Positions 11,212 through 38,689 of a stretch of 64,000 bases of DNA are shown one piece after another. Under the pieces are notes generated by a model. It worked only from the letters and a program-made list of their open reading frames with translations, was not told where the DNA came from and ran no database searches. Positions within the stretch are counted from its first letter, which is position 1, and each line of letters starts with the position of its first letter. The stretch is from Vicinamibacterales bacterium. Lineage in GTDB: Bacteria > Acidobacteriota > Vicinamibacteria > Vicinamibacterales > UBA2999. Position numbers and translations under genes: made by a program. The DNA lies in assembly GCA_050185275.1 (NCBI GenBank), contig JBFWZN010000001.1:202621-266620 (forward strand). The letters run 5' to 3'.

Positions 11212-11409
11212 CCACGTCCCCGTGACGCGCCGATAGCCCAGCGGCCCATTCGCGCGCCCTCCCCTGCAGATTGCCCAACCGACGCCGATAGAGTGGGTTA
11301 GCGCGTGAGCCGCGCGTCTCGTGCACTCGTGGGCGACCGTGGGGCACCAGCGGCACATGCGGGCAACGGTTGCGCGACACACGCGAAGCTTCGCAGGAAC
11401 GACACACAC

Positions 11410-13842: not shown

Positions 13843-13843
13843 G

Positions 13844-15385
13844 ATGGGTCGTCCGGAACGGGTCGGGCCGGTTGGGCCCGATGGCCCGTGGCCGGCGGGC
13901 GATGCCCTCGACACGGCATGGGCCCGCGCCGTCGATGGGCTGCTGCTCGTCGGCGCGGACGGGCTCGTGCTCGCCGTGAACCAGGCCGCCTCGGCGCCAC
14001 TGGCGCACCTGGGCGGATCGCCGGGCCGCCACCTGCCCGAGCCGCTCCAGGCCGCGATCGCGCAGCGGGGGCTGCGCCGCGTCGAGGTGCCGGCGGCCGA
14101 CGGCCGGACACGGCTCTTCGAGTGCCAGGCCCCCGCGGACCAGGGCGACGGCCCGGCGCTGCTGGTCCTGCGCGACGTGACCGACCGGCTGCGGCTCGAT
14201 CGACAGGCCCACCAGGCGGAGACGATGGTGGCGGTCGGGCGCCTGGCCGGCGGCATCGCCCACGATCTCAATAACATCCTCACGGCCATCGTCGGCTTCG
14301 GCACGCTGGTCGCCGAGGCCGTGCGGGAGCACAGCGACGCGTCGCAGAGTGCGCGCGAGGTGCTCGATGCGGCCGAACGCGCCACCGTCCTGACCCGCCA
14401 GCTGCTGGCGTTCGGCCAGCGCCAGATCCTGCACCCGACGCGGGTGGACGTGGGGCCGACCGTGCGCGAGGCCCTGCCCGGCCTGCGGGAGCGACTCGGG
14501 CCTGGCGCAACGCTGGAGGTCGTCACCCCACCGCATGTGCCCCCGGTGCGCGTGGACGAGCGTCAGCTGGTGACCGTGCTCGATCACCTCCTCGACAACG
14601 CCCGCGAGGCCGTGCGCGGACACGGCGCCGTCACCATCGAAGCGGACGACGTGGTGCTGGATCAGCCCTACTGCGACACGCACGTCAGCGTGCGGCCCGG
14701 GCACTACGTGCGGCTCGCGGTCAGCGACACCGGTGTCGGCATTCCCGCCGACGTACAACCCCGGGTGTTCGAACCGTTCTTCACCACCAAGGAGAAAGGG
14801 ACTGGCAGCGGCCTGGGACTCGCCACGGTGTACGGCATCGTGAAGCAGAGCGGCGGCTACGTCTGGATCTACAGCCAGCCCGGGGTGGGAACGACGGTGA
14901 AGGTCTACCTGCCGGTCGACGACTCGGGCCGCACGCGGCCGGCCGCCGTCGTCGAGGCCCGGGGCGAGGCGCCGGAGACCGGTACCGTCCTGCTCGTCGA
15001 GGACGCCGACGCCATCCGGCAGTTGGCGCGCGACGTGCTGCGTCGGGCGGGCTACCGCGTCCTCGAGGCATCCGATGCCGAGCAGGCCGTGGAGATGGCC
15101 ACCACGCATGACGGCGCGATCGATGCGCTCGTCACCGACGTGATCATGCCCGGCGCCAGCGGCGTGGACCTGGCCCGCACCCTGGCCGCGCACCGACCGG
15201 GTCTCCAGGTCCTCTACATGTCCGGCTACACCGACAACGCGGTGGTACGCAACGGGCTGCTGGCCGACGAGGCGCCGTTCCTGCAGAAGCCCTTCACGCC
15301 GCGGGACCTGCTCGAGAAGGTCCGTCAGGTGTTCGGCGCGGCGGTGTCGGGCGTGCCTCAGCCGAAGAGCGAGTCCGGCCCATAG
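13844..15385 (+). CDS. hybrid sensor histidine kinase (PAS-like, HisKA, HATPase, REC)
   Basis: Start at internal MGRPERV, 1 nt after the upstream stop. PAS-like N-terminus. H-box VAVGRLAGGIAHDLNNILTAI. N/G boxes (LLDNAREA; DTGVGI; GTGSGLGLATVYGIV). C-terminal REC (VLLVEDADAIR...DALVTDVIMPGASG...KPF). Confidence 0.9.
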   Translation: MGRPERVGPVGPDGPWPAGDALDTAWARAVDGLLLVGADGLVLAVNQAASAPLAHLGGSPGRHLPEPLQAAIAQRGLRRVEVPAADGRTRLFECQAPADQGDGPALLVLRDVTDRLRLDRQAHQAETMVAVGRLAGGIAHDLNNILTAIVGFGTLVAEAVREHSDASQSAREVLDAAERATVLTRQLLAFGQRQILHPTRVDVGPTVREALPGLRERLGPGATLEVVTPPHVPPVRVDERQLVTVLDHLLDNAREAVRGHGAVTIEADDVVLDQPYCDTHVSVRPGHYVRLAVSDTGVGIPADVQPRVFEPFFTTKEKGTGSGLGLATVYGIVKQSGGYVWIYSQPGVGTTVKVYLPVDDSGRTRPAAVVEARGEAPETGTVLLVEDADAIRQLARDVLRRAGYRVLEASDAEQAVEMATTHDGAIDALVTDVIMPGASGVDLARTLAAHRPGLQVLYMSGYTDNAVVRNGLLADEAPFLQKPFTPRDLLEKVRQVFGAAVSGVPQPKSESGP

Positions 15386-22162: not shown

Positions 22163-22287
22163 GGCGCCGATTCTAGCCCGGGCGTCCCGCGGGGGCCGCG
22201 CCCCGGCTGCGGGGGTGTCGCGTGTAGGATGGCGTGCACGGGCTCGCTGCGAATCGTCCGACGCCCGTATGGCGCACCTGACTGTCC

Positions 22288-25023: not shown

Positions 25024-27438
25024 TCAGAACGAGAAACGCACGCCGACCCGCAGCGCGCGCGGAATCGCGGGGTGCGTATGGATGTCCTCGATCCCCTCCT
25101 CCGGCTCGCCGGGCAGACGGGAGGCGTAGAAGTAGTCGATGTCCGAGGCCTCCGCGTCGAAGAGGTTGTAGCCTTCGAGCACGAGCCGCGCGCGAGGCGA
25201 CAGCGCGATGCCAGCTTCGGCGTTCCAGATCGTCGTGCTGCGTGAGGTCTGGCTGTTGTCCTCGATGAGTGAGCGCGGGCCGAAGTGCCGGACGCGGAGG
25301 CTGCCGAACAGGCGCCGGGTCGGCTCCACGGTCACCCCGGCCGAGACGACGCGGTCGAGTGCACCGGGGATGAACGTGCCTGCGGGGTCGTCGTCGGTGA
25401 AGCGGGCCTGCGTGAAGGCCACGTCGCCGTCCACGACAAGCCATGGGCGCAGGCGCGCATAGCTGGACCACTCAAGGCCGATGCGGCGGCTTGGCCGCCC
25501 GGCCTCGGTCGTGCCTGCATCGCCCACGAACAGCAGCTCGGAGGCGATGCCGAGATACCAGACCGACACGGTGGACTGGACTCCCGGAATCGCCACCGTG
25601 CGGAGGCCCACCTCCGCACCGGTGGCGCGAACGAGTGGCGTGACGGGCTCGGCAGCCTCGCCGGTGGACGGGTCCACGGCAATCACGGCCCCGCGCGCGT
25701 CGTTGCTGTGGAAGCCGCCGCCCGCGTTCACATAGAACTCCGTGCCGTTCCACGGCCCGATCACCGCCGAGAACTTGGGATTCACCATGGCGGTGCTGCC
25801 GCTGCCCGAATTGGTGTTCGTGTGGGCCGAGACGTCATACCGGTACACGTCCGCGCGGAAACCGACGGTGGTACGCAGGGACCGATGCCATTCCACCTCG
25901 GTCTGCGCGTACGCGCCCAGCATGCCCTGGCTCACCTCGTCCTCACGGGTCGTGGCAAAGCGCACGGCCTGCGTCGTGCGATAGAGCCCGACGGGACCGA
26001 GCCAGTCCTGTCGAATCTGGACGCCGGCCGCGCTCTCCGTATGGCGGCCGCCCAGGTGTCCCAGGCGCCGGTACGTCACCCGCCCGCCGGCGGCGACGCG
26101 ACGCTCCGCCTGTTCGAACTGATCGCCTCGCACCGGATCGTCGAGGAAGTAGGTGAAATTCGAGAAGAGATTGAGGCTGTTCCGCAGGACGAAGCCCGTT
26201 GCGCGAAGCGAGGCCGGTCCGCTCGATCGCTGTACCTCGATCGCGAGGCTCTGGCGGTTGGCCTGACCCCGATCGCTCCGGTCGATGAGGCCGAACCGCG
26301 AGATGCGCCCGTCGTCGATGGCGCGACGCGGCACCTGATCGGTGGAGCGCCAGTCGGCCCAGTACCCCATGCCGCTCAGCGAGAGCCCGTTGCGGGCATC
26401 GCCCCGGCTGTACCGGAGCACCGTGTTCACCTTCTGCAGGCCGTCGGGGCGGTCCCACGGGCCGTCGTTGAAATTCAGCTCCACGGCGCCGAGGAGGCTT
26501 CCGCCCCGAACCTGCGGGGAGGCTGCGGCGAGAAGCCGGCCCCACCCCTGGGACCCGCCGCTCAGGACGAGGAGCGGGGCCGCCAGCACGTTGACGTAGC
26601 TGACCGCGGCCGCGCCCGCGGCGGAAAAGTCGCCTTCGTCAGCGAAGTAGGGCCCCTTCTTGAACTGCACGCCGCTCACGAGTTCCGGAATGAGGAAGTT
26701 GGCGTCGGCATAGCCATGCGCGTGTGCGCCCGTCGGCATGTTCACCGGGACGCCAGCCACGGTCATCGAGAAGTCGGTGCCGTGATCGAGGTTGAAGCCG
26801 CGCAGGTAGTACTGATTGGCCTTGCCCTCGCCGCTATGCTGGCTGATCACCATGCCGGGCACGGTCTCGAGCACCTCGCCGGCGCGCATCACCGGGCGCG
26901 CCTCCAGCTGCGCCGCCGTGATCGCGCCCTGGCTCGCCGCCGACGCGATGCCCACCAGGTTTTCGGTGGGGTTCGGTACGTCGGCGATGTTGCGGAAGGT
27001 CGCAGCGGCGGTGACCACGACATCGGCACTGAGCGCCAGCGGCAGCATGGCGTTCTCCACGACCGTGGCACCGGGCGCCAGCGCCAGCCCGCGCCGGATG
27101 GTCGTGAAGTTGAGCAGCCGGAACGTGATCTCCGCGTTCCCGGAGGGCAGGCCGGCCAGGGTGTAGCGGCCGGCCATATCGGTGGTCGTGGATTGCTCGG
27201 CGGCCCCCACGCCGATTTCCACGAGCACACCCGGCAGGGCGGCGCCCGTCTGGTCGGTCACCACACCCGAAACGGTCGCCGGTGTGGAGACCGGCGCCTG
27301 GGCGCCTGCCGGATCGGCCAGGAGCAGGACGAGAATGGCGAGGACGGCGGCGGGAACGCCGGCGCGAGCGATGATGGTGCGATGCAGGAGCGGCAGGATG
27401 TGGTGCATGGCGAAGACGTGTGGTCTGCGAGGTGTCAT
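25024..27438 (-). CDS. TonB-dependent receptor with an N-terminal carboxypeptidase-regulatory-like domain
   Basis: Signal peptide, then VSGVVTDQTGAALPGVLVEI...GRYTLAGLPSGNAEITF. Plug region and barrel follow, with the C-terminal LRVGVRFSF. An alternative start exists at Met-11 (27408). Confidence 0.88.
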   Translation of the reverse strand: MTPRRPHVFAMHHILPLLHRTIIARAGVPAAVLAILVLLLADPAGAQAPVSTPATVSGVVTDQTGAALPGVLVEIGVGAAEQSTTTDMAGRYTLAGLPSGNAEITFRLLNFTTIRRGLALAPGATVVENAMLPLALSADVVVTAAATFRNIADVPNPTENLVGIASAASQGAITAAQLEARPVMRAGEVLETVPGMVISQHSGEGKANQYYLRGFNLDHGTDFSMTVAGVPVNMPTGAHAHGYADANFLIPELVSGVQFKKGPYFADEGDFSAAGAAAVSYVNVLAAPLLVLSGGSQGWGRLLAAASPQVRGGSLLGAVELNFNDGPWDRPDGLQKVNTVLRYSRGDARNGLSLSGMGYWADWRSTDQVPRRAIDDGRISRFGLIDRSDRGQANRQSLAIEVQRSSGPASLRATGFVLRNSLNLFSNFTYFLDDPVRGDQFEQAERRVAAGGRVTYRRLGHLGGRHTESAAGVQIRQDWLGPVGLYRTTQAVRFATTREDEVSQGMLGAYAQTEVEWHRSLRTTVGFRADVYRYDVSAHTNTNSGSGSTAMVNPKFSAVIGPWNGTEFYVNAGGGFHSNDARGAVIAVDPSTGEAAEPVTPLVRATGAEVGLRTVAIPGVQSTVSVWYLGIASELLFVGDAGTTEAGRPSRRIGLEWSSYARLRPWLVVDGDVAFTQARFTDDDPAGTFIPGALDRVVSAGVTVEPTRRLFGSLRVRHFGPRSLIEDNSQTSRSTTIWNAEAGIALSPRARLVLEGYNLFDAEASDIDYFYASRLPGEPEEGIEDIHTHPAIPRALRVGVRFSF

Positions 27439-27511
27439 GGGGACCGGGTGCTATCCTGACCGGACGCCCGCCGGACCGTGGTCCGCGCCGGCGCCGAGGA
27501 GGCCAGTGTAG

Positions 27512-28840
27512 GTGGAGATCTCCCTCTCGCAGGTGCGGCACGTTGTCGCAGCGGACGGCGCGGCGCCAGACACCGCGGCGTCGATCGAGCGCGCTGTGCG
27601 CGTGGCGCGCGTCGCGACGTGCGGGCTTCACTGGATCGCGCTCCTCGGGCCCTGGCTCGCGCCCACCGTGGACCTGCCGCTGCGAGCGATCTGGTGGCTG
27701 CTGCTGCCTGCAGCCGTAGCCCAGACGGCACGCGTCGTCGTGCAGGCGCGCGGGGGCGCCGAACCGTCCGCGCTCGTCGGGCTGAGCCTGGCGGTCGACA
27801 CGCTCCTGCTCGCCGGCCTGCTCGACATCACGGGCGGTCCCTTCAATCCGTTCCTCGTGATGTACGGCGTCTACGTCTGGCTCGGCGCGGTGCGCCTGCC
27901 CCGGTTCTGGCTCGCGACGACGGTCGTGCTGGCCGTGGCCGGCGGGGCGTGGCTGGTCATCGATCACGTGCGCGCCGATCCCGGCGCCGTGCACCATCGC
28001 CTCAACGACCTCCCGACCCACCTCTTCACGATGTGGCTGGCCGCGCTGGCGACGGCCGATCTGGTGGCCTACTACGTGCGTCGAGGCTCGGCGGTGCTCG
28101 CCGCACGCCAGCGCGACCTGGAGGAGGCACGCGCGCGCGCGGCTCGAAGCGAGCGGACGGCCTCGTTGGTCACGCTCGCCGCTGGCGCGGCCCACGAGCT
28201 GTCGACGCCGCTGGGGACGATCGCCGTCGCGGCGCGGGAGCTGGAGCGCGCGGCTGCGCGACTGGGGGTGGATGCGACCAGCGATGCCGTCCGGGCGGAT
28301 GCGGCGCTCATCCGGGCGGAGGTGGACCGTTGCCATCGGGTGCTCGACGGCATGAGCGGCCGTGCGGGTCCACGCTTCCGCGAGTCGGCCGAACCGATGC
28401 GGGCCTCGGCCGCCGTCGCACTGGCGGTGTCGCGGCTGGACGAAGGCCAGCGCTCGCGGGTGCGGGTGGTGGCGGAGGCCATCGATCCGGTGCCCGCCCT
28501 GTCCGGCGGCGAGGTGGCACAGGCCCTCGTGTCACTGTTGCGCAATGGATTCGACGCGAGCGGCCCGGACGGCGTCGTGGACCTGCAGGTGGTCCTTCGC
28601 GACCAGCGCCTGTGTTTCGAGGTGCGCGACGCCGGGCACGGCATTCCGCCCGATGTCCTGCCGCGGGTGGGCGAGCCCTTCTTCACCACCAGGCTGTCGG
28701 GAGGGGGGCGTGGCCTCGGCGTGTTCCTCGCGCGCCTGCTCGCGGAGCAGGAGGGCGGACGTCTCTACTTCCAGAGCGGCCACGGCACGACGGCCGTGCT
28801 CGAACTGCCGGTCCTCGCAGCGGCCGGCGGCCTGCCATGA
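27512..28840 (+). CDS. regB: RegB/PrrB-like redox-sensing histidine kinase
   Basis: GTG start and a multi-TM N-terminus containing GGPFNPF, which matches the RegB quinone-site heptapeptide GGxxNPF. H-box AAHELSTPLGTI, a Cys in the following helix (EVDRCHRVL), and HATPase boxes (LLRNGFDA; DAGHGI; GGRGLGVFL). Confidence 0.8.
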   Translation: MEISLSQVRHVVAADGAAPDTAASIERAVRVARVATCGLHWIALLGPWLAPTVDLPLRAIWWLLLPAAVAQTARVVVQARGGAEPSALVGLSLAVDTLLLAGLLDITGGPFNPFLVMYGVYVWLGAVRLPRFWLATTVVLAVAGGAWLVIDHVRADPGAVHHRLNDLPTHLFTMWLAALATADLVAYYVRRGSAVLAARQRDLEEARARAARSERTASLVTLAAGAAHELSTPLGTIAVAARELERAAARLGVDATSDAVRADAALIRAEVDRCHRVLDGMSGRAGPRFRESAEPMRASAAVALAVSRLDEGQRSRVRVVAEAIDPVPALSGGEVAQALVSLLRNGFDASGPDGVVDLQVVLRDQRLCFEVRDAGHGIPPDVLPRVGEPFFTTRLSGGGRGLGVFLARLLAEQEGGRLYFQSGHGTTAVLELPVLAAAGGLP

Positions 28841-29400
28841 GTTCCGAGACCTCGCCAGGGCCCTCCTGGGCGGGAGGTCCGGACGGCCGGACGCTGCTCG
28901 TGGTGGATGACGATGCGCCGTTCCGGCTGCGGCTCGTGCGAGCCATGCGCGATCGCGGGCTCGATGCCGTCGGCGTCGCCGATGACGGGGAGGCGCTGGC
29001 CGTGGCCCGTCAGGACAGCCCGGAACTGGCGGTCGTGGACCTGCGGCTGGGATCGGCCTCGGGGCTTGCGGTCGTGCGTGGCCTGCGGGCGATCGATCCC
29101 ACCACGGCCATCGTCGTGCTCACCGGCTACGGCAGCATTGCGACGGCGGTGGAGGCCGTGAGGTGCGGCGCGGTGGACTATCTCACCAAGCCTGCCGATG
29201 CCGACCAGATCCTGGCCGCCCTCGACGGCACGCGAGGAGTCGCAGAGACGGGCGTGCCGTCACTGGCCCGCGTGGAGTGGGAACACATCAACCGCGTGCT
29301 GGCCGACTGCGGCGGCAACGTGTCCCGGGCCGCGCGCGTGCTGGGGCTGCATCGGCGCTCCCTGCAGCGAAAGCTGTCGAAGTTCCCCGCGAGTCGCTAG
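28837..29400 (+). CDS. regA: RegA/PrrA/ActR-like response regulator (REC plus Fis-type HTH)
   Basis: ATGA overlap with the kinase gene. REC domain (LLVVDDDAPF...LAVVDLRLGSASG...TGYGSIATAV...YLTKP). C-terminal HTH NVSRAARVLGLHRRSLQRKL, typical of the RegA family. Confidence 0.85.
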   Translation: MSSETSPGPSWAGGPDGRTLLVVDDDAPFRLRLVRAMRDRGLDAVGVADDGEALAVARQDSPELAVVDLRLGSASGLAVVRGLRAIDPTTAIVVLTGYGSIATAVEAVRCGAVDYLTKPADADQILAALDGTRGVAETGVPSLARVEWEHINRVLADCGGNVSRAARVLGLHRRSLQRKLSKFPASR

Positions 29401-29429
29401 CGGGGGCGCGACACCGGGACGTGAAGGGG

Positions 29430-29777
29430 CTAGCGGCGCCTGGCGGGCTGCGGTGCTGCCGCCATGCCGGTGAGCAGGGCCCGGGCGACGTCGGACAGTG
29501 CCTCGAGCTGGATGCCGGTGATGTAGCGGATCTCGCCCTGCACGAGTTCCCCGCGCCAGTGCACCACCCGGCCCGCCACGACGACGTGCTGGTCGTCCTG
29601 ACGCAGGCGGAATTCGTGGCGCGACTCGGGTTGCAGCCGGTAGCGGGTTTCGAGCGTCAGCCCCCCGTCGCTGACCTCCCGCACCGTCACCGGCTCGTCG
29701 AGGGTGATGGTGTGCCCCTGCAGCTCGGTCAGGATCTCGATCCGGGGGGCGTGTCGGCGTTCAGATGCCATGGCCAT
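29430..29777 (-). CDS. small PilZ-like domain protein (115 aa)
   Basis: Start at internal MAMASE. RRHAPR matches RxxxR, and 23 residues later EVSDGG approximates D/NxSxxG (E in place of D/N). Size and beta-rich pattern fit a single-domain PilZ. Confidence 0.7.
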   Translation of the reverse strand: MAMASERRHAPRIEILTELQGHTITLDEPVTVREVSDGGLTLETRYRLQPESRHEFRLRQDDQHVVVAGRVVHWRGELVQGEIRYITGIQLEALSDVARALLTGMAAAPQPARRR

Positions 29778-29942
29778 GGTCAGGTCGGTGCTCCGACCGG
29801 GCCAATCGACACGGCGCGGGAGGGCTTGAGGCCGCGTGCCTGGAACTGCACGAGACTGCTCGGCCCCGTACACACAGCCCTGCCCACCGAAGTCCCGACA
29901 CCTGCGATCGCACTCGCGGATCGGGCAGCGCCCAACCTCAAG

Positions 29943-29974
29943 ATTGCGGGGGACCCCGCCGATATTGCGGGGGA
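29943..29974. repeat. two exact copies of ATTGCGGGGGA spaced 21 bp apart in the divergent intergenic region
   Basis: Copies at 29943-29953 and 29964-29974. The second overlaps the GGGAGGAG Shine-Dalgarno of the giant gene. The 8-bp palindrome GCGATCGC lies at 29904-29911. Confidence 0.6.
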
Positions 29975-29988
29975 GGAGTGCCGCACGG

Positions 29989-32900
29989 ATGTCCCGTGTC
30001 GCACGTCCGAGACCAGATCCCAAACCTTCCGTGGACAAGGCCGTGACCGCCAAGACGCTCGAGCCATCGGTGGAGGTCGAGCACCTCCGTCGTGTGCTCG
30101 ACACGCAGCCGGGGTGCCTCCTGCGGGTGGCCCTGGACGGCCTCGTGCTGGCCGCCAACGATGCCGCGCTCCGCCTGCTGGGGGTTGAGGGCCTGGCCCA
30201 GGCTCTGGGCCGGCGGCTCAACACCTGGGTGGTGCCCGCGCACCAGCAGCGCTGGGCTGAGTTCGCGGGTCATGTCTCGCGCGGGCTGCCGACGTCGTTC
30301 GAGTGCGACCTCACGGGGCCGGCGGGCTCGCTGCGTCCCACGTTGTTTCACGGCGTGCCGATGCTCGAGCACCCCGACGGCGTCAGGTCGGTGCTGGTGG
30401 CCGCCCGCGACCTCTCGGACCGCCATCGGCTCGAGACCTCCCTCGAAGCCTCGGGGGCGGGTTCGGGCCAACCCGACCCGGACCGGGCGGCCCTCGAGAT
30501 CCAGTTGCACGACGCGGTCGAGGATCGGCGGCGCACCTTCGAGCTGCTCGCCGCTCTCGAGGCCACCCAGCAGGCGCTGGTCGCCGAGCACATCACCGAA
30601 CAGGCGAAGACGGCCCGAAGCCTGCGCGCCCTGGCCTCGCAGCACGAACTGGACCTCGGACAGGGCGACACGGTCGACAGCGACGAAGCCATCGACTTCT
30701 CCCTGACCAACGCGGTGCCCGATGCGGGTTCGTCGGCGGCCGGCGAGCGGGCGGAAGCCCTCGTGCAGGGCATCGAAGCCAGCCAGCGTTCGCTGGTGGC
30801 CGGGCACCAGGCCGACCGGCAGCGGCTGCAGAAGGCCCTGCAGGTATTCGCCGAGCAGCACCAGCTCGACCTGCTCCTGCTCGCCGAGGGCGAAGCCGAC
30901 CGACGCCGGCTCGAGGAGTCGGTACTGGCGTTGTCCCGGCAGGCGGACGCCGGGGCGTCGGACCGCGCGGCCGTGGAGGGCGATCTGGCGCGCGCCGATG
31001 ACGAACGCCGCCGGCTGGAGGCGGCCCTTGCCGCGCTGGAGGCACGGCAGGCCGAACTGCAGACGTCGTTCGCGCAGGAACGTCTCCGCCTCGAACACGA
31101 GTTGTCGGAGAGCCGCACCTACGGCACCGACGTAGGCGGCGAGATCGCCAGACTCGAGGGTGAGCTGGCGTCTGCGCGGGAGCAACTGGCCGGCCTCGTG
31201 CTGGAACGTGACCGCCTGGCGGCGCGCGTCGCCGTGCTGGACGCCGATGCCAGCCGGCTTCCCGAACATGCCGAGGCACGCGAGCGCGAGCGGGTCAGGG
31301 CGGACGAGGCCGAGCGCGCCTGTGCCACCGCGGAGACGGCCTGCCAGGCCCTGCAGGCACGCGTCGAGGCGCTGACCGGGGAGCGCGATGCCGCCGTGCG
31401 GCGTGCCGAGGCGGCGCAGGGTCTCGAATCGTCGCTTCGCGAACGGGAACTCGAGGTCCAGCGCCTCGCGGCCGATCGCGCGGCCTTCGAGGCCCAGCTC
31501 GCCATCATCCGGGACGAACAGCAGACGCTGCGCCAGACACTCGCCCAGCGCGATCACGAGTTGGCCGAACTGACCGACGCCCGCCTCCAGGCGGAGACCA
31601 GGCTCGACGAGGTACGCGCCGGACAGGAGCAGCTCGAGGCGAGCCTGCTGGACCTGCAGGCCCAGCACGCGCTGGTGGAGGAGCAGCTCGCGCGTGCCGA
31701 CGTGGAGCGACAGCGCGCCGAGGGCCGCCGACAGCAGGCAGAGGCCACGCTGCAGCAGCGGACGACGGAGCAGGAGGTCGAGCGCGGACGGTTCCAGCTG
31801 GCGCTCCAGACCCTCGCGGAGGAACACCGGGCCGAACTGGTCAAGGCGAAGGACAGCCCGCGCCGCCGGCAGCTCGAAACGTCGCTCGCAGAGCGCGAGG
31901 CCACGCTCCAGACGCTCGAGCAGGAACAGGCCGCGCTGCAGGCCCGGCTCGAGGATGTGGACGGCGAACGGCTGCGGCTCGAGGCGTCGGTGCTGGGACT
32001 CACCGCCGACCACCAGACGGCCCATGAGCATCACGAGCGCGAGCGTGCGCGTCTGCTCGACGAACTGACCGCCCTGCAGCGCGCGCACGAGGCAAGCCGG
32101 CCTGCCGCGGACGACGCGCAGCGTCTGCAGGCCCTGCAGGACCAGCTCGACGCGTGCACCGCGGCGGTGGAGCGCGCCGAGCAGGCGAGGCTCGATGCCT
32201 TGCAGGCGCTCGACCGCGTGGAACAGGAGCGCGCACGCCTGCTCGCCAGCCTCGAAGAGGTCACACGCCGTGCCGAGGGCGCCGAGCAGCGGCATCAGGA
32301 AGCCGAGAGCCGCCTGGCTGCACAGGACGAGCGTCACCGCGACGCCGAGGGGCGGCTCCAGCGTGCGGAGGAGGCGGTGCGCGAGGCCGACGCGCGCCTG
32401 CGCGCAATCGATGCCGCGCGCGAGGACGCCGAGCGGACGAGGGCGGCGCTCGACGACGCGCTCGTCGCCGAACGCGCGGCACGCGAAGGCCTCGAGGAGC
32501 AGCTGCGCACCGAGTCGTCCGAGCGGCAGGCCCTGGCGACGCGGATCGGCGAGGCCGAGTCCAGCCGTGCGGAGCTCGAAGCCAGGTTGCAGGCCGAAGA
32601 GGCGGAACGGCGCGGGCTCGACGAGCGTGCGCGGGACGCGGAAGCCCGGTGCGCGGCGCTCGAGACCGACGTGGCGGCGGCCAGGGCCCGGATCGAGGCG
32701 CTCGAAGCCCAGCGTGCGGAGGCCGAGCGCGAGCGCGCCGTCCTGGACGAGGCGCTTCGCGCCGAACGCGCGGCACGCGAAGCCCTCGAGGAGCAGCTGC
32801 GCACCGAGTCGTCCGAGCGACAGGCCCTGGCGACGCGGGTCGGCGAGGCCGCGTCCAGCCGCGCGGAGCTCGAAGCCAGGTTGCAGGCCGAAGAGGCGGA

Positions 32901-34872
32901 ACGGCGCGGGCTCGACGAGCGCGCGCGGGATGCGGAAGCCCGGTGCGCGGCGCTCGAGACCGACGTGGCGGCGGCCAGGGCCCGGATCGAGGCGCTCGAA
33001 GCCCAGCGTGCGGAGGCCGAGCGCGAGCGCGCCGTCCTGGACGAGGCGCTTCGCGCCGAGCGCGCGGCACGCGAAGGCCTCGAGGAGCGCCTGCGCACCG
33101 ACGAGGCCGAGCGGCAGGTGCTGGCCACGCACGTGCGCGATGCGGAGACCAGCCGCGCAGCGCTCGAAGCACGCCTGCAGGCGGACGCGGAAGGGCGGGA
33201 AGCCCTCGAGTCGCGGGTCCGGGACCTGGAGGCGCAGATCCACGACGCCCGGGTCCGACGCGTGGAGGCCGAGGCGGCCGCGCGGGCGGAGACCGAACGC
33301 CGCGAGTCCGTCGAACGCGAGGCGCGGGCGAAGGACGAAGCCGTGCAGGACCTCGAGGCCCGCCTCGCCACAACTGATGCACTCCGGATCGAGGCCGAGC
33401 AGGCGCGCGCGGTTCACGACGAGGCCCTCCGGTCCCTGCAGGCGGCCAGTGACGCCGGGCAGCTGGCGTTCGCGGCACTGGAATCCCGTGTGCACGACGA
33501 GGAGCGCCGGCGTCTGGAGGTCGAGCAGACACTACGCGTCGAGCAGGCCCGTCGCGAAGAGGCAGAGACGCGGCTGCAGACGCTCGAGGGTGAACTCAGC
33601 CGCGTGACAGGCGACCGGCAGACGCTGGAGCAGGCGCGTGACGAGGCTGGCCGGCGTCTGCAGGAGACGGAGGCGCAGCTGTCCCGCCTGCAGGCCGATG
33701 CCGAGGCCGAACGGCACGCCGCAGAGCAGGCACTGCAGGCGCTGGCCGAGCAGCACCGCACGGTGCTCGACGCCGCGCGTGAGCAGGCTCGGGAGCTCGA
33801 GCTGCGCAGCCGGTCTGTCGAAGCCGAGCGGCAGGCGGAAACGGAGGCGCTGCGGGCGGAACGCGACGCGGCCAGAAGCCATGCGGCCGACCTCCAGGGC
33901 CAGTGGAACGCGCTCGACGATCGACTGCGGAGCCTCGACGTCGAGCTCCGGTCGCGGACCGAGGCGTTCGAGACGTCGAATCGCCGGCTGGAGCACATGC
34001 TGGCCGAACGCGCCGCCGAGCTCGCCACGCGCGACGAGGCCCTTCGTGCGGCGAGCACGACCGCGGCCGAGACCCAGGCGAGGCTCGAGTCCACGAACGC
34101 GGCGCTCGAGCTGGCACAGTCGCACCTGCAGGAAGCGGTGCGGCGGGTTGAACGGCTCGAGACCCTGGAACGTGAGCGCACCGCTCTGGTCGCGCGACTG
34201 GAGGAGTCCTCAGCGACCCAGGCGCGGCTCGCGGCGGCGATCGGCCGGCTGGAAGAGGACGCTCGGGTCCAGGCAGCCGAGCAGGAGGCCGAGCGTCTGC
34301 GCCTGATCGAGGCCGCGCGGACCGAGGCCGCCACCCTCCGCGCGCGTCACGAGGACGCCGAGGGGCTGGCGAGGCAGGCCCTTGCGGCAGAACAGGCCCG
34401 CGCCGATCAGCTCGTGATCGAGCGACAGCAGCTGGAAGCGCTGGCGGAGCTGCACGAGTCCGCGCGACAGCAGCTGGTGGCGGAGCAGAGCGCCGAGCGG
34501 CTGCGGCTGCAGCAGCTCTCCGACGCGGCCGTGGCCGAGCAGGCGAGGCTGGCCCGCGTGATGGCCGAGCAGACAATCGAACTCGAGAGTCTCGTGGACT
34601 ACGCGCGCCGCGTGTCGCCGCTGGTGGCCGCCGGCCGCCTGGCGAGTCAGGTGGGCCGTGAACTGCGCGATCTGTTGCGGCGGGTGGATACCAGAGCGAA
34701 GCGCCTGCTCACCGACTATCCGCAGGAGTCCGTCGGTCGGCGCGACATCGAGATGCTGCGCTCCGACGCCATCTCCGCGAGCTGGCTCGCGCACCAGCTC
34801 CTGCAGTCGTCGGAAGACGTGTCGGACGGACCGGACGACGATCGATCCGGTCAGGCAGGGAGCCGGCCATGA
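29989..34872 (+). CDS. giant (~1,627 aa) protein: PAS-like fold, ~1,400-aa coiled-coil-type region, degenerate DHp-like C-terminus
   Basis: Start chosen at MSRVARPRPD because GGGAGGAG lies about 11 nt upstream; the ORF is open from 29836. PAS-like segment: LLRVALDGLVLAANDAALRLLG...FECDL...VLVAARDLSDRHRLE. The rest is continuous A/E/R/L/Q-rich sequence with no TM helix, Walker A or catalytic motif. The C-terminal LVAAGRLASQVGRELRDLLRRV resembles a kinase H-box without the His. Confidence 0.8.
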   Translation: MSRVARPRPDPKPSVDKAVTAKTLEPSVEVEHLRRVLDTQPGCLLRVALDGLVLAANDAALRLLGVEGLAQALGRRLNTWVVPAHQQRWAEFAGHVSRGLPTSFECDLTGPAGSLRPTLFHGVPMLEHPDGVRSVLVAARDLSDRHRLETSLEASGAGSGQPDPDRAALEIQLHDAVEDRRRTFELLAALEATQQALVAEHITEQAKTARSLRALASQHELDLGQGDTVDSDEAIDFSLTNAVPDAGSSAAGERAEALVQGIEASQRSLVAGHQADRQRLQKALQVFAEQHQLDLLLLAEGEADRRRLEESVLALSRQADAGASDRAAVEGDLARADDERRRLEAALAALEARQAELQTSFAQERLRLEHELSESRTYGTDVGGEIARLEGELASAREQLAGLVLERDRLAARVAVLDADASRLPEHAEARERERVRADEAERACATAETACQALQARVEALTGERDAAVRRAEAAQGLESSLRERELEVQRLAADRAAFEAQLAIIRDEQQTLRQTLAQRDHELAELTDARLQAETRLDEVRAGQEQLEASLLDLQAQHALVEEQLARADVERQRAEGRRQQAEATLQQRTTEQEVERGRFQLALQTLAEEHRAELVKAKDSPRRRQLETSLAEREATLQTLEQEQAALQARLEDVDGERLRLEASVLGLTADHQTAHEHHERERARLLDELTALQRAHEASRPAADDAQRLQALQDQLDACTAAVERAEQARLDALQALDRVEQERARLLASLEEVTRRAEGAEQRHQEAESRLAAQDERHRDAEGRLQRAEEAVREADARLRAIDAAREDAERTRAALDDALVAERAAREGLEEQLRTESSERQALATRIGEAESSRAELEARLQAEEAERRGLDERARDAEARCAALETDVAAARARIEALEAQRAEAERERAVLDEALRAERAAREALEEQLRTESSERQALATRVGEAASSRAELEARLQAEEAERRGLDERARDAEARCAALETDVAAARARIEALEAQRAEAERERAVLDEALRAERAAREGLEERLRTDEAERQVLATHVRDAETSRAALEARLQADAEGREALESRVRDLEAQIHDARVRRVEAEAAARAETERRESVEREARAKDEAVQDLEARLATTDALRIEAEQARAVHDEALRSLQAASDAGQLAFAALESRVHDEERRRLEVEQTLRVEQARREEAETRLQTLEGELSRVTGDRQTLEQARDEAGRRLQETEAQLSRLQADAEAERHAAEQALQALAEQHRTVLDAAREQARELELRSRSVEAERQAETEALRAERDAARSHAADLQGQWNALDDRLRSLDVELRSRTEAFETSNRRLEHMLAERAAELATRDEALRAASTTAAETQARLESTNAALELAQSHLQEAVRRVERLETLERERTALVARLEESSATQARLAAAIGRLEEDARVQAAEQEAERLRLIEAARTEAATLRARHEDAEGLARQALAAEQARADQLVIERQQLEALAELHESARQQLVAEQSAERLRLQQLSDAAVAEQARLARVMAEQTIELESLVDYARRVSPLVAAGRLASQVGRELRDLLRRVDTRAKRLLTDYPQESVGRRDIEMLRSDAISASWLAHQLLQSSEDVSDGPDDDRSGQAGSRP
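32467..33348 (+). repeat. three tandem 294-bp (98-codon) in-frame repeats inside the giant gene
   Basis: Units start at 32467, 32761 and 33055, each beginning GCCGA(A/G)CGCGCGGCACGCGAAG. By my eye copies 1 and 2 differ at about 7 of 294 nt. Copy 3 is clearly diverged. A partial related unit precedes at about 32390-32466. Confidence 0.9.
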
Positions 34873-35240
34873 TCATCGTGCAGATCTCGCCGCGCCGTCC
34901 GGCGTCGGCCTTCCCGACCATCAGCGGCCTCCGCATCGCGCCGGAGGGCGGGCAGGCCGTGCTGGTGAACATGTCCACGACCGGCGTGCTCACCGAATGC
35001 CCGAAGCGCATTGCCCCCGGCAAGAGCGTAACCGTGCACTTCGAGGGGGGCTTCACCCCTACGTCGGTCAAGGGCAAGGTGGCCCGGTGCGGCGTGGCGG
35101 GCATCGACAAGCAGGGGACGCTTCGCTACCACCTCGGCATCGCGTTCGAGACCCCGATCTCGCTCGACGCCGCCGTGGGCAGCGAGCCCGTTGCGGAGAC
35201 GGTCGAACCCGACGCGGTGGCGGTCAGGAACCGTTGGTGA
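34869..35240 (+). CDS. small PilZ-like domain protein (123 aa), translationally coupled to the giant gene
   Basis: ATGA overlap at 34869-34872. VLVNMSTTGVL matches NxSxxG. The upstream basic motif is only PRRPAS (RR, not a full RxxxR). Size and beta pattern resemble PilZ. Confidence 0.6.
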   Translation: MIIVQISPRRPASAFPTISGLRIAPEGGQAVLVNMSTTGVLTECPKRIAPGKSVTVHFEGGFTPTSVKGKVARCGVAGIDKQGTLRYHLGIAFETPISLDAAVGSEPVAETVEPDAVAVRNRW

Positions 35241-35502
35241 GACTGCCGGGATAGTGCTCTTCGACGTGGTGTCGCACCACCTCGGCGTCGGCGACCGCCT
35301 TGTCACGTTGCACGCCCTTGGCGCGCTCCTTGTAGCGTTGGACGTTGGCCTGCCGCGTCTCCTCGGAGCTGACCGAGCAGCGTGAGATCAGGCGTTCGAG
35401 ATCGCTCCCATGGCACGCGGGGCACGCGGCCACGTCGCCGGTGCGAATCAACTGCTCGAATTCGCGGCCGCAGGCACGGCACTGATACTCGTAGATCGGC
35501 AT
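35224..35502 (-). CDS. FmdB-family zinc-ribbon protein
   Basis: MPIYEYQCRACGREFEQL...ACPACHGSDLERLIS is the canonical CxxC...CxxC FmdB N-terminus. Its 3' end overlaps the convergent PilZ-like gene by 17 nt. Confidence 0.85.
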   Translation of the reverse strand: MPIYEYQCRACGREFEQLIRTGDVAACPACHGSDLERLISRCSVSSEETRQANVQRYKERAKGVQRDKAVADAEVVRHHVEEHYPGSLTNGS

Positions 35503-35635
35503 TCCGTCGCTCCCTCCCGCACCTTACCACGACGGCCCGCCCCGGTGCGCCTCCTGTACAATCCGTGGTCGGCTCCGTGCCGCGGTGGCGCGAAGGGCCG
35601 AATCCGGGCGTCCGACAGGTATCAAGGAGAGAACC

Positions 35636-36166
35636 ATGAAGCAGGCAGTTCGAATCGTGGCCATGCTGGCCCTGGTGTGTGGAGGGGCCGTGCAACTGCG
35701 GGCACAGACGGGTACCCTGGCTGGGGACGTGCTGAAGGACTGGCAGGACCAGGGGCAGCAGATCCGCGGCCTGGCGGCCGCGATGCCGGATGACGCATTC
35801 GGGTTCAAGCCAACGCCAGCGCAGCGCTCGTTCGCGCAGCAGGTCACGCACATCGCCGAGATCAACGTGATGGTCCTGCGCGCCCTGGGCGCCCGCACCG
35901 CCGCTCCCCAGATCGACACCATGGCCACGACGAAGGCTGCGGCGCTGGCTGAGCTTGCCAAGTCCTATACGTACGGCGAAGCCGTCATCCGCGAGTTCAA
36001 CGACGCCGCCATGGCGCAGGGTGTCGATGGCCCTCCGTTTCTTGGCCGGTCCACCCGGGCGCGCCTCGCCTACTTCGCGATGTCGCACGCCATGGACAGC
36101 TACGGGCAGATGGTCGTGTACCTGCGTCTGAACAACATCGTGCCTCCCGCCAGCGCGGGTATGTAG
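35636..36166 (+). CDS. DinB-family protein with a signal peptide
   Basis: AAGGAGA Shine-Dalgarno, then start MKQAVRIVAMLALVCGGAVQLRAQT. DinB-like helical-bundle features (FAQQVTHIAEIN...HAMDSYGQMVVYLR). Confidence 0.75.
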   Translation: MKQAVRIVAMLALVCGGAVQLRAQTGTLAGDVLKDWQDQGQQIRGLAAAMPDDAFGFKPTPAQRSFAQQVTHIAEINVMVLRALGARTAAPQIDTMATTKAAALAELAKSYTYGEAVIREFNDAAMAQGVDGPPFLGRSTRARLAYFAMSHAMDSYGQMVVYLRLNNIVPPASAGM

Positions 36167-36235
36167 CACGTATCGGCGGCCGGCGGGTCCGCCGGGCGCG
36201 ACCCGACGGCCCCGCGGCCATGCCATCATGACGCC

Positions 36236-38689
36236 ATGCCGGACCCGCTGGCGTCTCCCCCCTCACCTGACGCGGCCGCCCATGCCGACGGCCAGGCACG
36301 TGTCGGGACGCCCGCCACCACGACGACCGACCTCGTGGTGACGGGCATGACCTGTGCGGCCTGCCAGGCCAGCGTCCAGCGGGCGCTCACCCGGCAGCCC
36401 GGCGTCCACCAGGCGACGGTGAACTTCATGACAGGCCAGGCCCGGGTGGTGTTCGATCCGGCGCTGGTCGATCCCGTGCGGTTCGTGGATGCGGTGGAAG
36501 CCGCCGGGTACGACGCTACGCTGCAGGCGAGCGAGACGTCCGCGATCGCGGCACAGCAGGCCCACGATGCCCGGACGCGGGACGAGTACCACGCACTTCG
36601 GATGCGGGCGGTCGTCTCGGTGGCGACGGGCCTGGCGGCCATGGTGCTGTCCATGCCCCTGATGGCGCCGACGGGGAGCGCGGGAGCGCCCATGGGCGGC
36701 GACCCCTTCATGCACGCCGTGATGGAGCGTCTCGCCCCAGGGCTCGAACGTCTGGCCCCATGGCTGTATCGGGTGCCTCAGGCGTGGCTGACATGGACGC
36801 TGCTCGCCGTGACCGTGGGCATCATGGCGTGGGCGGGCCGGCGGTTCTACGGAGACGGGTTCCGGGCACTCGTACGCCGGACGCCCGACATGAACAGCCT
36901 GGTGGCGGTCGGCACCGGGGCCGCGTTCACCTACTCCACCGTCGCCACGGTAGCTCCCGGCGTCCTGATGCGCGCCGACCGCATGCCGGACGTGTATTTC
37001 GAGGCCGTCATCATCATCATCGCGCTGGTGCTGGCCGGCCGGGCCCTCGAGGCCCGTGCCAGGCTCCAGACGGCCGACGCCCTGCGGGGGCTCATTGCGC
37101 TGCGGCCGACCACGGCCCGGCGCGTCGAGGGAAGCGGGGTCCGCGAGATCCCGGTCGATCAGGTGCGCCGCGGGGACGTCGTGCTGGTCCGTCCCGGTGA
37201 GCGCGTCCCCGTGGACGGCGAGGTGGTGGAGGGCGAGACCGCGGTGGACGAGTCGATGCTCACCGGCGAACCCATGCCGGTCTCGAAGCGTCCCGGCAGT
37301 ACGGTCGTCGGCGGGACGATCAACCAGATGGGCGCGATCCAGTGCCGTGCGACAGCGGTGGGACCCGACGGCACGCTGGCGCAGATCGTCCGGCTCATGC
37401 GGGACGCACAGGCCTCTCGCGCGCCGATTCAGCACGTGGCCGATCGGGTCAGCGCGGTATTCGTTCCGGGTGTGATGCTGGCGAGCGCGGTGACCGTGGC
37501 CGCCTGGCTGCTGCTCGATCCCGCCGGCGGAATCGTGACCGCCCTGGCCGCCGGTGTGTCCGTGCTGATCATCGCGTGTCCCTGCGCCATGGGCCTCGCG
37601 GTGCCCACGGCGGTGATGGTCGCCACGGGGCGTGCCGGTCGCCTGGGCCTGCTGCTCAAGGGCGGCGAGGCGCTGCAGCGGCTGGCCGACGTGGACACCG
37701 TGGTGCTCGACAAGACAGGCACGCTCACGACCGGTGCCCCCTCGGTGGCCGCGTGCATGCCGGTGGCCATGGGCGAGCGCGACCTGCTCCTGCTGGCCGC
37801 CGCGGTCGAGCAGTCGTCCGAGCATCCGCTGGCGCACGCCCTCGTCACCGAGGCACGCGCCCGCGGGGTCGATCTGCCGCCCGTGACCGAGTTCCGGAGC
37901 GAGGCGGGCGACGGGGCCAGCGGGCGTGTCGACGGCCGACAGGTCATCGTCGGCCGGGAGGCCTGGGTACGGGCGGCGGGTGTCGATACGCGTGCGCTGG
38001 CGCCGTTCCTGTCGCAGGCACAGGCGCAGGCGTGGTCGGTGATCGTGGTGGCGGTCGCGCCCGCCGACGCCGGGGCCCGTCCCGCGGGCGTCCCCCTCGC
38101 GGGTCTCGTGGTGGCCGGCGCGATAGGCGTGGCGGACGTCATCCGGCCGACGGCTCGCGCCGCGGTAGGAGCCCTGCGCGCGGCGGGGCTGGACGTCGTC
38201 ATGCTGACCGGCGACCGTGCCAGCACGGCACGCGTCGTGGCCGATGCCGTGGGCATCACACACGTGGTATCGGACGTCAGGCCCGATGGCAAGGTCGCCG
38301 CCGTCGCCGACCTGCAGGCGGGAGGGCACGTCGTGGCGATGGTGGGTGACGGCGTGAACGACGCCCCGGCGCTGTCGAAGGCCGATGTCGGCATCGCGCT
38401 CGGCACCGGCACGGACGTCGCGCTCGACGCCGCGGACGTCGCACTGATGCGTCCCGATCTCCGCCTGCTGGGCGACGTCGTGCGATTGTCCAGGCGGACG
38501 ATGCGCACCATGCGGCAGAACCTGTTCTGGGCCTTCGTCTACAACGTGGTCGGCATCCCCGTGGCCGCCGGAGTCCTGTACCCGCGATACGGCATCCTGC
38601 TCAGTCCCATCCTCGCGAGTGCGGCGATGGCGCTCAGCTCGGTAAGCGTGGTGGGCAACAGCCTCCGCCTCCGGCGCACACGTCTCTGA
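36236..38689 (+). CDS. copA: copper-translocating P1B-type ATPase
   Basis: N-terminal heavy-metal-binding domain ([15 protein letters not shown]). TGEP, the CPC transmembrane metal site ([13 protein letters not shown]), DKTGTLT, SEHPLA, and the hinge [11 protein letters not shown]. Confidence 0.93.

Follow-up and report, generated by a model that had tools for sequence, protein, structure and literature searches.

A Two-Gene Cassette of Vicinamibacterales Pairs a Putatively Kinase-Derived PAS/Coiled-Coil Protein with a PilZ Protein

Introduction

What might a bacterium do with a protein of 1,627 residues that joins a PAS domain to about 1,400 residues of coiled coil, and whose gene runs into a gene for a small PilZ protein? 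This question is raised by a locus at positions 29989–35240 of a 64,000-nucleotide stretch of DNA from a Vicinamibacterales bacterium (assembly GCA_050185275.1, contig JBFWZN010000001.1, positions 202,621 to 266,620 of the forward strand; "the window" means this whole stretch, numbered from its first letter). A preliminary description of this DNA had grouped the giant gene with a PilZ gene on either side, and had proposed that the three encode a scaffold or filament under the control of cyclic di-GMP (c-di-GMP). Here we report that the locus consists of two translationally coupled genes, a cassette of soil Acidobacteriota that is typical of the Vicinamibacterales. It joins known kinds of parts in an undescribed arrangement: our literature search found no description of this cassette, in which a PAS/coiled-coil gene (PAS-CC) precedes a PilZ gene of a subfamily named PilZ-NRW. 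With moderate confidence we favor the view that the pair forms a sensor/adaptor complex, made of a kinase-derived coiled-coil protein and a PilZ protein, which integrates a PAS signal with c-di-GMP.

No class of c-di-GMP receptor is more common than the single-domain PilZ proteins, and we know of no partner for most of them. At this locus the genome itself appears to supply the partner as a translationally coupled, kinase-derived PAS protein. The pair is found in hundreds of environmental sequence clusters, and signaling in the Acidobacteriota (order Vicinamibacterales) is almost unstudied.

Results and Discussion

Gene Arrangement and Conservation

The two genes and their translation signals, which lie in DNA of about 72% G+C, are as follows.

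29970–29978, plus strand: Shine–Dalgarno-like GGGGAGGAG, as read from the sequence, 10 nt 5′ of the ATG of the giant gene
29989–34872, plus strand: giant gene, a single open reading frame (ORF) with coding-type G+C content by codon position, for a 1,627-residue cytoplasmic protein with the layout PAS head, coiled-coil stalk, degenerate DHp domain
34857–34862, plus strand: AGGGAG, the Shine–Dalgarno site of PilZ2, within the 3′ end of the giant gene and 6 nt before the PilZ2 start
34869–34872, plus strand: ATGA overlap of the giant-gene stop with the PilZ2 start, which suggests translational coupling
34869–35240, plus strand: PilZ2, 123 residues, PilZ-NRW subfamily (PF07238, 32.3 bits; cutoff 22.5)

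The overlap at 34869–34872, by which the preliminary description had joined the two genes, can be read directly from the sequence, and an ATGA or GTGA junction between a PAS gene and a PilZ gene also occurs in at least 13 other loci. The C-termini of homologues (…EEGR, …TEGRR) encode Shine–Dalgarno sites equivalent to AGGGAG. The last residues of PAS-CC proteins are therefore likely to be constrained by a translation signal, because the same nucleotides form the Shine–Dalgarno site of the overlapping PilZ gene. Endings of the type …EEGR, …TEGRR or …EEGHA are seen in many PAS-CC orthologues (L003, L008, L016, P0009, P0016, P0017 and others). No terminator-like site was found across window positions 29300–35700.

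A search with the full-length giant protein gave only two relatives, coiled-coil words having saturated the candidate list, and profiles of the end domains were used instead. In two homologues, P0001 and P0002, similarity to the giant protein is confined to the PAS head (39–49% identity) and the last ~90 residues (31–34%), and both of their genes are followed by an overlapping small gene. (A third sequence, P0003, resembles a frameshifted copy of P0001.) The PAS-head profile retrieved 41 relatives that are 39–57% identical to the PAS domain of the window, most of them proteins of 120–250 residues with a PAS domain and a short coiled coil. In every locus that contained enough sequence, apart from P0183 and probably the place of P0174 (see below), a PilZ gene lies 3′ of the PAS gene, usually with an ATGA or GTGA overlap. 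Altogether, a PilZ gene ending in NRW directly follows and overlaps the PAS gene in about 17 independent loci: the window, L001–L004, L006, L008–L011, L013–L018, L024 and the place of P0143. These were reached from the PAS side (L001–L004, L006, L008–L011, L013), from the PilZ side (L014–L018, the P0143 place) and from the C-terminal domain (L024); a genome scan with a narrower PilZ alignment had returned 5 loci only. All loci that carry an organism name are metagenome-assembled genomes (MAGs) of Acidobacteriota, several of them classified as Vicinamibacterales. Since the start/stop overlap is accompanied by synteny in about 17 independent loci, the sequence evidence supports the giant gene and the downstream PilZ gene as a real functional pair.

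The same comparison bears on the third gene of the proposed unit, which diverges from the giant gene.

29430–29777, minus strand: PilZ1, a stand-alone PilZ protein of 115 residues (PF07238, 30.9 bits; cutoff 22.5)

The preliminary description was right about the gap of 211 bp between PilZ1 and the giant-gene ATG at 29989, and about the character of PilZ1 itself, which passes the Pfam cutoff and contains R8xxxR12 (RRHAPR) and E34-V-S-D-G-G39, with Glu in the place of Asp/Asn of the (D/N)xSxxG motif. Homologues of PilZ1 were detected by phmmer only in the window and in L007, a 97%-identical relative, and none was found in 10 other complete-cassette loci, each with several kilobases of flanking sequence. 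PilZ1 thus appears to be an adjacent, lineage-specific neighbor outside the conserved cassette, and the conserved unit, as far as sequences tell, comprises two genes and not three. What survives of the trio is the pairing of the giant gene with PilZ2. PilZ1 also matches TIGR02266, a Myxococcus paralogous PilZ-like family, weakly and below threshold (24 bits; cutoff 69).

Two further observations concern the relatives. Loci L010 and L012 both belong to the MAG DATBJG01 (Vicinamibacterales SMAG_U3914) and are paralogous PAS-CC loci in one genome; therefore the cassette can exist in more than one copy. In L003 (8001–9603), L006 (8001–9063) and L013 (10001–13520), which are metagenome contigs of long-read style, the PAS-CC gene is split into several frames within the repetitive stalk, by either assembly frameshift errors or real pseudogenization.

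The PilZ Partner

PilZ2 consists of a β-barrel (residues ~9–100), a disordered linker (~101–118) and a C-terminal Asn-Arg-Trp. The AlphaFold2 model of the monomer shows six strands, with a predicted local distance difference test score (pLDDT) above 90 for residues 11–100 and below 50 for residues 102–117. Its best Foldseek matches in the Protein Data Bank (PDB) are the PilZ domains of MotI/DgrA, Alg44, YcgR and MrkH (probability 1.0, E about 0.01, TM score about 0.5). The barrel carries N34-M-S-T-T-G39 and the single motif Arg, R9; the N-terminal motif reads Q5-I-S-P-R9-R10, so that RxxxR is incomplete, with Gln for its first Arg. The preliminary description of a PilZ-like protein of 123 residues with NMSTTG and a degenerate RxxxR is thereby borne out. 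Orthologues of PilZ2 score 19–34 bits against PF07238, and the PilZ-NRW profile gathers 273 related clusters. In the best 120 of these 273, NxSxxG is present in all 120 and the second Arg never varies; 81 have a complete RxxxR of which this Arg is the last residue. All 120 also end in the same three residues, encoded here at the extreme 3′ end of PilZ2.

35229–35237, plus strand: codons of the invariant C-terminal Asn-Arg-Trp (NRW)

No other ORF ending in NRW was found in 313 kb of related loci. The Ala/Pro-rich linker between barrel and NRW is disordered and varies from about 20 to about 110 residues. From these models, PilZ2 is best described as a divergent single-domain PilZ protein with an adaptor-type layout, in which a terminal peptide would be tethered to the barrel.

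The subfamily counts make a link to c-di-GMP plausible, because each of the 120 members has NxSxxG and 81 of them have RxxxR; since the first Arg is replaced by Gln in the window, the affinity of this particular PilZ2 for c-di-GMP may be reduced. Loss could also be complete, in which case PilZ2 would be a structural or adaptor subunit only, comparable to the eponymous PilZ of Pseudomonas and Xanthomonas or to the tetrameric PilZ FlgX, and the cassette would signal through its PAS domain alone. Such a reading is consistent with the Gln in QISPR-R, with the 39 of 120 relatives that likewise do not have the first Arg, and with a family profile that matched no solved PilZ by sequence and a Foldseek E value of only about 0.01. 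On the other side stand the invariance of NxSxxG and of the second Arg and the full RxxxR in 68% of members, a conservation pattern which selection for nucleotide binding would give; the window copy moreover has an extra Arg after the invariant one. We therefore regard a non-binding PilZ2 as a minority possibility, albeit one with some weight.

The Degenerate DHp Domain

The giant protein ends in a helical hairpin that profile methods relate to histidine kinases.

34612–34815, plus strand: degenerate HisKA/DHp domain, residues ~1542–1609, a helical hairpin detected by profile methods
34657–34659, plus strand: codon of Arg1557 at the position of the phospho-acceptor His (GRELRDLL aligned with AHDFNNLL)

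Aligned by hhalign to a small profile of kinase DHp domains, this region gave a probability of 93% (E 3.4e-7) over 68 columns that include both DHp helices; as a negative control, the kinase profile scored at most 3% in all 100-residue windows upstream of the C-terminal domain. A hidden Markov model of the C-terminal domain, searched against 1.8 billion proteins, returned 368 clusters, and in family members the domain lies 1–30 residues from the C-terminus. The same profile matched genuine PAS-HisKA-HATPase_c(-REC) kinases at E 1e-6 to 1e-8, and in these true kinases the aligned stretch is the Pfam HisKA domain. The two best sequence matches of the C-terminal profiles in the PDB are the DHp domains of CckA (5idj) and ZraS (E 0.04–0.07); both alignments are in register, with Arg at the His position, which is suggestive and no proof. 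The domain has kept a kinase-type helix-1 signature, LAAAGRLA..V..EL. Across the family the H-box residue is mostly Arg, also Pro, Gly, Ser, Ala, Asn, Thr or Asp, and rarely His. The giant protein ends 18 residues after DHp helix 2, no Pfam match to HATPase_c follows, and the PilZ gene comes next.

These comparisons indicate that the C-terminal ~70 residues are a degenerate HisKA/DHp domain and that the giant protein is a kinase-derived pseudo-sensor. On this evidence its gene descends from a PAS-HisKA-type sensor histidine kinase that lost the CA domain and the phospho-acceptor His. The helix linker between PAS and DHp has been inflated to ~1,400 residues by tandem duplications of in-register heptad multiples. 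Family members such as P0037 (213 residues) and L010 (338 residues) consist of PAS and DHp-like domains only, and the family as a whole looks like a series of stepwise kinase decay, in which the CA domain, then the His and then the DHp domain were lost. It would thus document how a histidine kinase decays stepwise into a non-catalytic scaffold. The protein would be incapable of kinase, phosphatase and phosphotransferase activity, because the phospho-acceptor His and the ATPase domain are missing. The preliminary description had seen no enzymatic domain in this protein; an active kinase is indeed absent, while a kinase-related domain is present, the C-terminus being homologous to HisKA.

The principal alternative to our favored reading takes the DHp remnant as the output. 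According to this model, the protein would modulate kinases in the manner of DivL, RetS–GacS or HapZ–SagS, by forming heterodimers with genuine "GRLAGGVAHDFNNLL"-type HisKA kinases or by sequestering a response regulator such as the adjacent REC-Fis protein, and PilZ2 would add sensitivity to c-di-GMP. Three genes in the window are pertinent.

13694–15385, plus strand: hybrid HisKA-HATPase_c-REC kinase with H-box VGRLAGGIAHDLNNIL
27512–28840: HisKA+HATPase_c kinase, domains confirmed
28840–29400: REC+Fis-HTH regulator, domains confirmed

The retained helix-1 signature, the fact that the closest relatives outside the family are PAS-HisKA-HATPase_c(-REC) kinases, and the presence of a hybrid kinase at 13694–15385 and of a kinase/regulator pair directly upstream all speak for such a role, and cooperation between PilZ proteins and kinases has precedent (PMC12564702). 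However, many cassettes without the DHp remnant have kept the PAS head and PilZ-NRW, synteny of the adjacent kinase/regulator pair extends no further than the 97%-identical relative, and allosteric control would have to act from sensor to output across 200 nm of stalk, which is difficult to envisage. We therefore consider this model unlikely, though it deserves to be taken seriously. As a separate observation, H-box VGRLAGGIAHDLNNIL of the hybrid kinase is of the same type as that of the ancestor of the dead DHp domain.

The PAS Head

30079–30429, plus strand: PAS domain, residues 31–147 (PAS_4 35.1 bits, PAS 25.1 bits, both above cutoff)

The PAS-like fold proposed for the N-terminus is established by Pfam scores above cutoff together with an AlphaFold2 model and its structural matches. 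The model of residues 1–170 (mean pLDDT 88) places an N-cap helix (residues 26–38) before the PAS core and a J-α helix, which begins at residue 143, as the lead into the stalk. FixL, the PAS domain of BvgS and short LOV proteins are among the Foldseek matches at E of about 1e-7; there were 573 PDB matches at E ≤1e-3, and all 50 of the matches listed are of PAS type. The near-invariant residues of the head (C43, R46, N57, D58, W89, S103, E105 and H128-P-D130) do not fit the cofactor signatures of LOV or FixL, and the head contains neither a LOV signature nor a conserved His or Cys on the F-α helix.

The Coiled-Coil Stalk

30415–34608, plus strand: coiled-coil stalk, residues ~143–1540, ~206 nm long if one continuous rod
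32452–33170, plus strand: tandem repeat within the stalk, 294 bp × 2.4 copies, 92% identical (Tandem Repeats Finder, TRF)

Between residues 150 and 1540 the protein is composed of 21% Ala, 16% Glu, 15% Arg, 13% Leu and 8% Gln, with only 6 prolines, all of them outside residues 706–1543. The periodicity of hydrophobic residues has its maximum at exactly 3.50 residues, where z relative to shuffled sequences rises to as much as 8. Composition and period thus confirm the ~1,400 residues of A/E/R/L/Q-rich, heptad-like sequence that the preliminary description had recognized. Its further statements that the protein has no transmembrane helix and no Walker A motif, and is neither an SMC protein nor an active kinase, also hold: the Kyte–Doolittle maximum of the giant protein is 1.44 and no Walker A motif was found in it. 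SMC/Rad50 models match the coiled coil only, at 62 bits against a cutoff of 567, and this assignment was rejected given the PAS N-terminus and the missing Walker A motif. A role in anti-phage defense was likewise dismissed, the sole PADLOC match being an 18-bit, coiled-coil-only similarity to LmuB. Nor does the protein contain an RsiG-type c-di-GMP-binding coiled-coil motif, E(x)3S(x)2R(x)3Q(x)3D.

Unlike the two ends of the protein, the stalk sequence is not conserved among orthologues. The 294-bp repeat unit corresponds to 98 residues, exactly 14 heptads. The strongest arrays in orthologues have periods of 42 and 63 bp (L002) and of 21 and 42 bp (L011), and the stalk of L008 contains runs of a 7-residue unit. 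L011 also has a 33-bp array, which is not a heptad multiple, although heptad-multiple periods predominate; in L001, TRF found no repeats at the DNA level. Since orthologues carry their own, unrelated tandem repeats, the stalk appears to have grown independently in each lineage, predominantly by tandem duplications that keep the heptad phase. Counted from the PAS motif, orthologues measure 199, 219, 244, 332, 345, 370, 468, 475, 586, 984, 1,172, 1,460 and 1,610 residues. Because proteins with the same PAS head and PilZ partner thus span ~200 to 1,610 residues, the extreme length in the window reads as a lineage-specific expansion rather than a defining property of the family, and the length of the stalk is more likely a tolerated or tuned feature than an essential one.

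One could go further and propose a new kind of kinase-derived, non-catalytic signaling device in which the stalk is a length-tunable spacer or tether. Duplications in heptad phase would adjust it between about 7 and about 206 nm, and it would set the distance from the PAS domain to the PilZ adaptor, whose tethered NRW peptide captures a target. This idea is speculative and we think it doubtful; if true, stalk length would be an evolvable functional parameter and the stalk a molecular ruler for second-messenger signaling. Independent of this idea, the natural series of stalks, which spans 50 to 1,400 residues, lends itself to asking whether coiled-coil length influences signal transmission.

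The original proposal for this locus, a cytoskeletal or polar scaffold or filament controlled by c-di-GMP and formed by PilZ1, the giant coiled coil and PilZ2, draws on the same stalk: ~1,400 residues with an exact heptad period and almost free of proline, which as a continuous rod would reach ~206 nm, flanked by two PilZ genes and without a catalytic domain. Comparison with the relatives does not support this proposal. PilZ1 is absent from all other loci tested, and some orthologues that share head and partner have only 194–250 residues, which is also the size of most relatives; a long, filament-forming rod is therefore not a family property. In database searches, too, most relatives have 150–250 residues. 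A cytoskeletal coiled-coil family would be expected to conserve its long rod as such and to assemble into filaments; here orthologues range from 199 to 1,610 residues. Finally, the signaling domains at the two ends, PAS and DHp-like, favor a discrete parallel dimer over a polymer. A filament-forming trio is accordingly improbable.

Integrity of the Open Reading Frame

Trivially, the giant ORF could be mis-assembled or a chance open frame in 72% G+C DNA, given that the opposite strand likewise has an open frame, of 1,185 residues, and that short-read assemblies break in the 294-bp repeat, which leaves the middle ~2 kb to one assembly; yet homologous, functional-looking domains at both ends of one frame, a heptad period throughout the stalk, full-length orthologues of 1,001, 1,171 and 1,459 residues, independent support for the 5′ and 3′ ends and an antisense frame that is expected from a coding composition rich in GAG, GCC, CGC and CTG make such an artefact very improbable indeed. 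The artefact model and the filament/trio model are both unlikely, and the preliminary reading of 29989–34872 as one frame of ~1,627 residues is confirmed.

The support for the two ends is as follows. Two short-read assemblies, SRR27751815 and SRR27751816, independently reproduce window positions 33030–38362 and 33030–37268 with 100% identity, so that the 3′ 1.84 kb of the giant gene is identical in both; each ends exactly at 33030, inside the 294-bp repeat. The contig L007 of the 97%-identical MAG is collinear with window positions ~27300–31040 and ends inside the gene, of which it covers the first ~1 kb. The middle (~31040–33030), including the copy number of the 294-bp repeat, is supported by the present assembly alone. 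Since the repeat breaks short-read assemblies, giant members are probably under-counted in MAGs. The antisense ORFs over the giant gene, at 29938–33495 (minus strand, 1,185 residues) and 33532–34872 (minus strand), have the same codon-position G+C profile; they are the mirror of coiled-coil coding sequence rich in GAG, GCC, CGC and CTG, and not a second gene.

Neighboring Genes

12853–13842, plus strand: REC-HD-GYP gene, 16 kb upstream of the cassette

The RegB/RegA-like pair and the nearby HD-GYP gene to which the preliminary description had drawn attention are present in the window, but their proximity to the cassette is not conserved in other loci; for the kinase/regulator pair, synteny is seen in the 97%-identical relative alone. 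The HD-GYP gene belongs to a run of signaling genes at 11302–15385 (plus strand), which encodes a sigma-54 activator (REC-AAA-Fis), the REC-HD-GYP phosphodiesterase and the hybrid kinase. Downstream of the cassette, an FmdB-type zinc-ribbon gene (Zn_ribbon_8; 35224–35502, minus strand) converges with PilZ2, and the 3′ ends of the two genes overlap by 17 bp. P-type cation ATPases flank the region (22282–24996 and 36236–38689, both plus strand). A related cation ATPase is also found upstream of the cassette in L006 (2954–5758), which suggests loose residual synteny and not a functional link.

Proposed Mechanism

Taken as a sensor/adaptor complex, the pair could operate as follows. The PAS-CC protein would form a parallel homodimer like kinases do, in which the PAS domains dimerize, the stalks coil around each other and the DHp hairpins build a four-helix bundle, and would be unable to phosphorylate anything. 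Its synthesis would keep a fixed ratio to that of the PilZ protein, which it would bind, so that the pair may merge the signal sensed by the PAS domain with the c-di-GMP occupancy of the PilZ barrel. Output would then occur by protein–protein contact, most likely through docking of the tethered NRW peptide on a cellular target. The invariant NRW ending is a ready handle for a search for such downstream targets.

Several observations weigh against this proposal. For PilZ2, these are the Gln at the first RxxxR Arg with R9 as the single motif Arg, the PilZ-NRW profile that matched no solved PilZ by sequence, and the AlphaFold2 monomer, in which the tail takes no docked position. For the C-terminal domain, Pfam HisKA gave no match up to E 10 on the last 120–140 residues, where the only Pfam hit, to CATRA-C, was below threshold. 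A large sub-clade (L003, L006, L008, L009, L015–L018) is without the DHp-like domain and has kept the PilZ partner: its proteins stop just before the DHp region, in a conserved "DRLVxALRxHxxxLxALA" segment. The minimal form, L004 (194 residues), is also DHp-less and has likewise kept the partner, in this locus a PilZ protein of 130 residues. The DHp remnant therefore cannot be the universal docking site of PilZ. No recurring theme among neighboring genes across the loci hints at an output. Finally, P0183 (904 residues, PAS 47% identical; L023, 2980–5694) has no adjoining PilZ gene, and at the place of P0174 such a gene is probably missing. In both of these family members a long stalk joins the PAS head to a dead DHp domain; either the partner is encoded elsewhere, or they form a PilZ-independent branch. 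In L023, a gene for a TonB-C-like membrane protein lies 330 nt 3′ of P0183.

Comparison with Known Systems

Features of the cassette recur in HapZ–SagS, in DivL-type pseudo-kinases and in short LOV proteins, and no single one of these precedents combines them all. Closest in domain order are CckA-like "GRLAGGVAHDFNNLL"-type PAS-HisKA-HATPase_c kinases, in which PAS, helical linker and DHp hairpin follow each other as in the giant protein. Their DHp domain is demonstrably homologous, that of CckA (5idj) being the best PDB match by sequence. In contrast to these kinases, the giant protein has Arg1557 for the His and no ATPase domain, and its linker measures ~1,400 residues instead of ~20–40.

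In Pseudomonas aeruginosa, the single-domain PilZ adaptor HapZ (PA2799) acts with the histidine kinase SagS (review PMC12564702). The cassette likewise combines a small stand-alone PilZ protein with a partner from the kinase family; in the cassette this partner is catalytically dead. HapZ is reported to act on the receiver domain of a hybrid kinase that is active, and we know of no translational coupling of HapZ to its partner and of no tethered C-terminal motif. DivL of Caulobacter is a PAS-containing pseudo-kinase with Tyr for His that signals by binding, and thus resembles the giant protein as a PAS-containing member of the kinase family without the phospho-acceptor His. However, DivL keeps its CA domain, is membrane-anchored and is not known to have a long coiled coil or a PilZ partner, and differs from the giant protein in each respect.

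The short LOV proteins PpSB1-LOV, PpSB2-LOV and SBW25-LOV, which rank with the top structural matches of the PAS head, are effector-less: a PAS core and an N-cap are joined to a J-α helix that forms a coiled-coil dimer. Cassette proteins of ~200 residues share exactly this layout; unlike the short LOV proteins, they have no LOV flavin/Cys signature and are accompanied by a conserved PilZ partner gene. With crescentin, Scy/FilP and AglZ/FrzS the window copy shares a very long heptad-repeat rod, and in AglZ and FrzS a signaling domain is likewise N-terminal to the coiled coil. In contrast to crescentin, Scy/FilP and AglZ, the rods of the cassette proteins vary roughly 30-fold in length (about 50 to 1,400 residues) between PAS and DHp-like ends.

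For the PilZ partner, analogy points to tethered docking peptides such as the C-terminal NWETF pentapeptide of chemoreceptors and the C-terminal tail of SspB. Like these, PilZ-NRW would present a short invariant C-terminal peptide on a variable, flexible linker that extends from a folded domain, while the motif itself, NRW, and its domain context set it apart.

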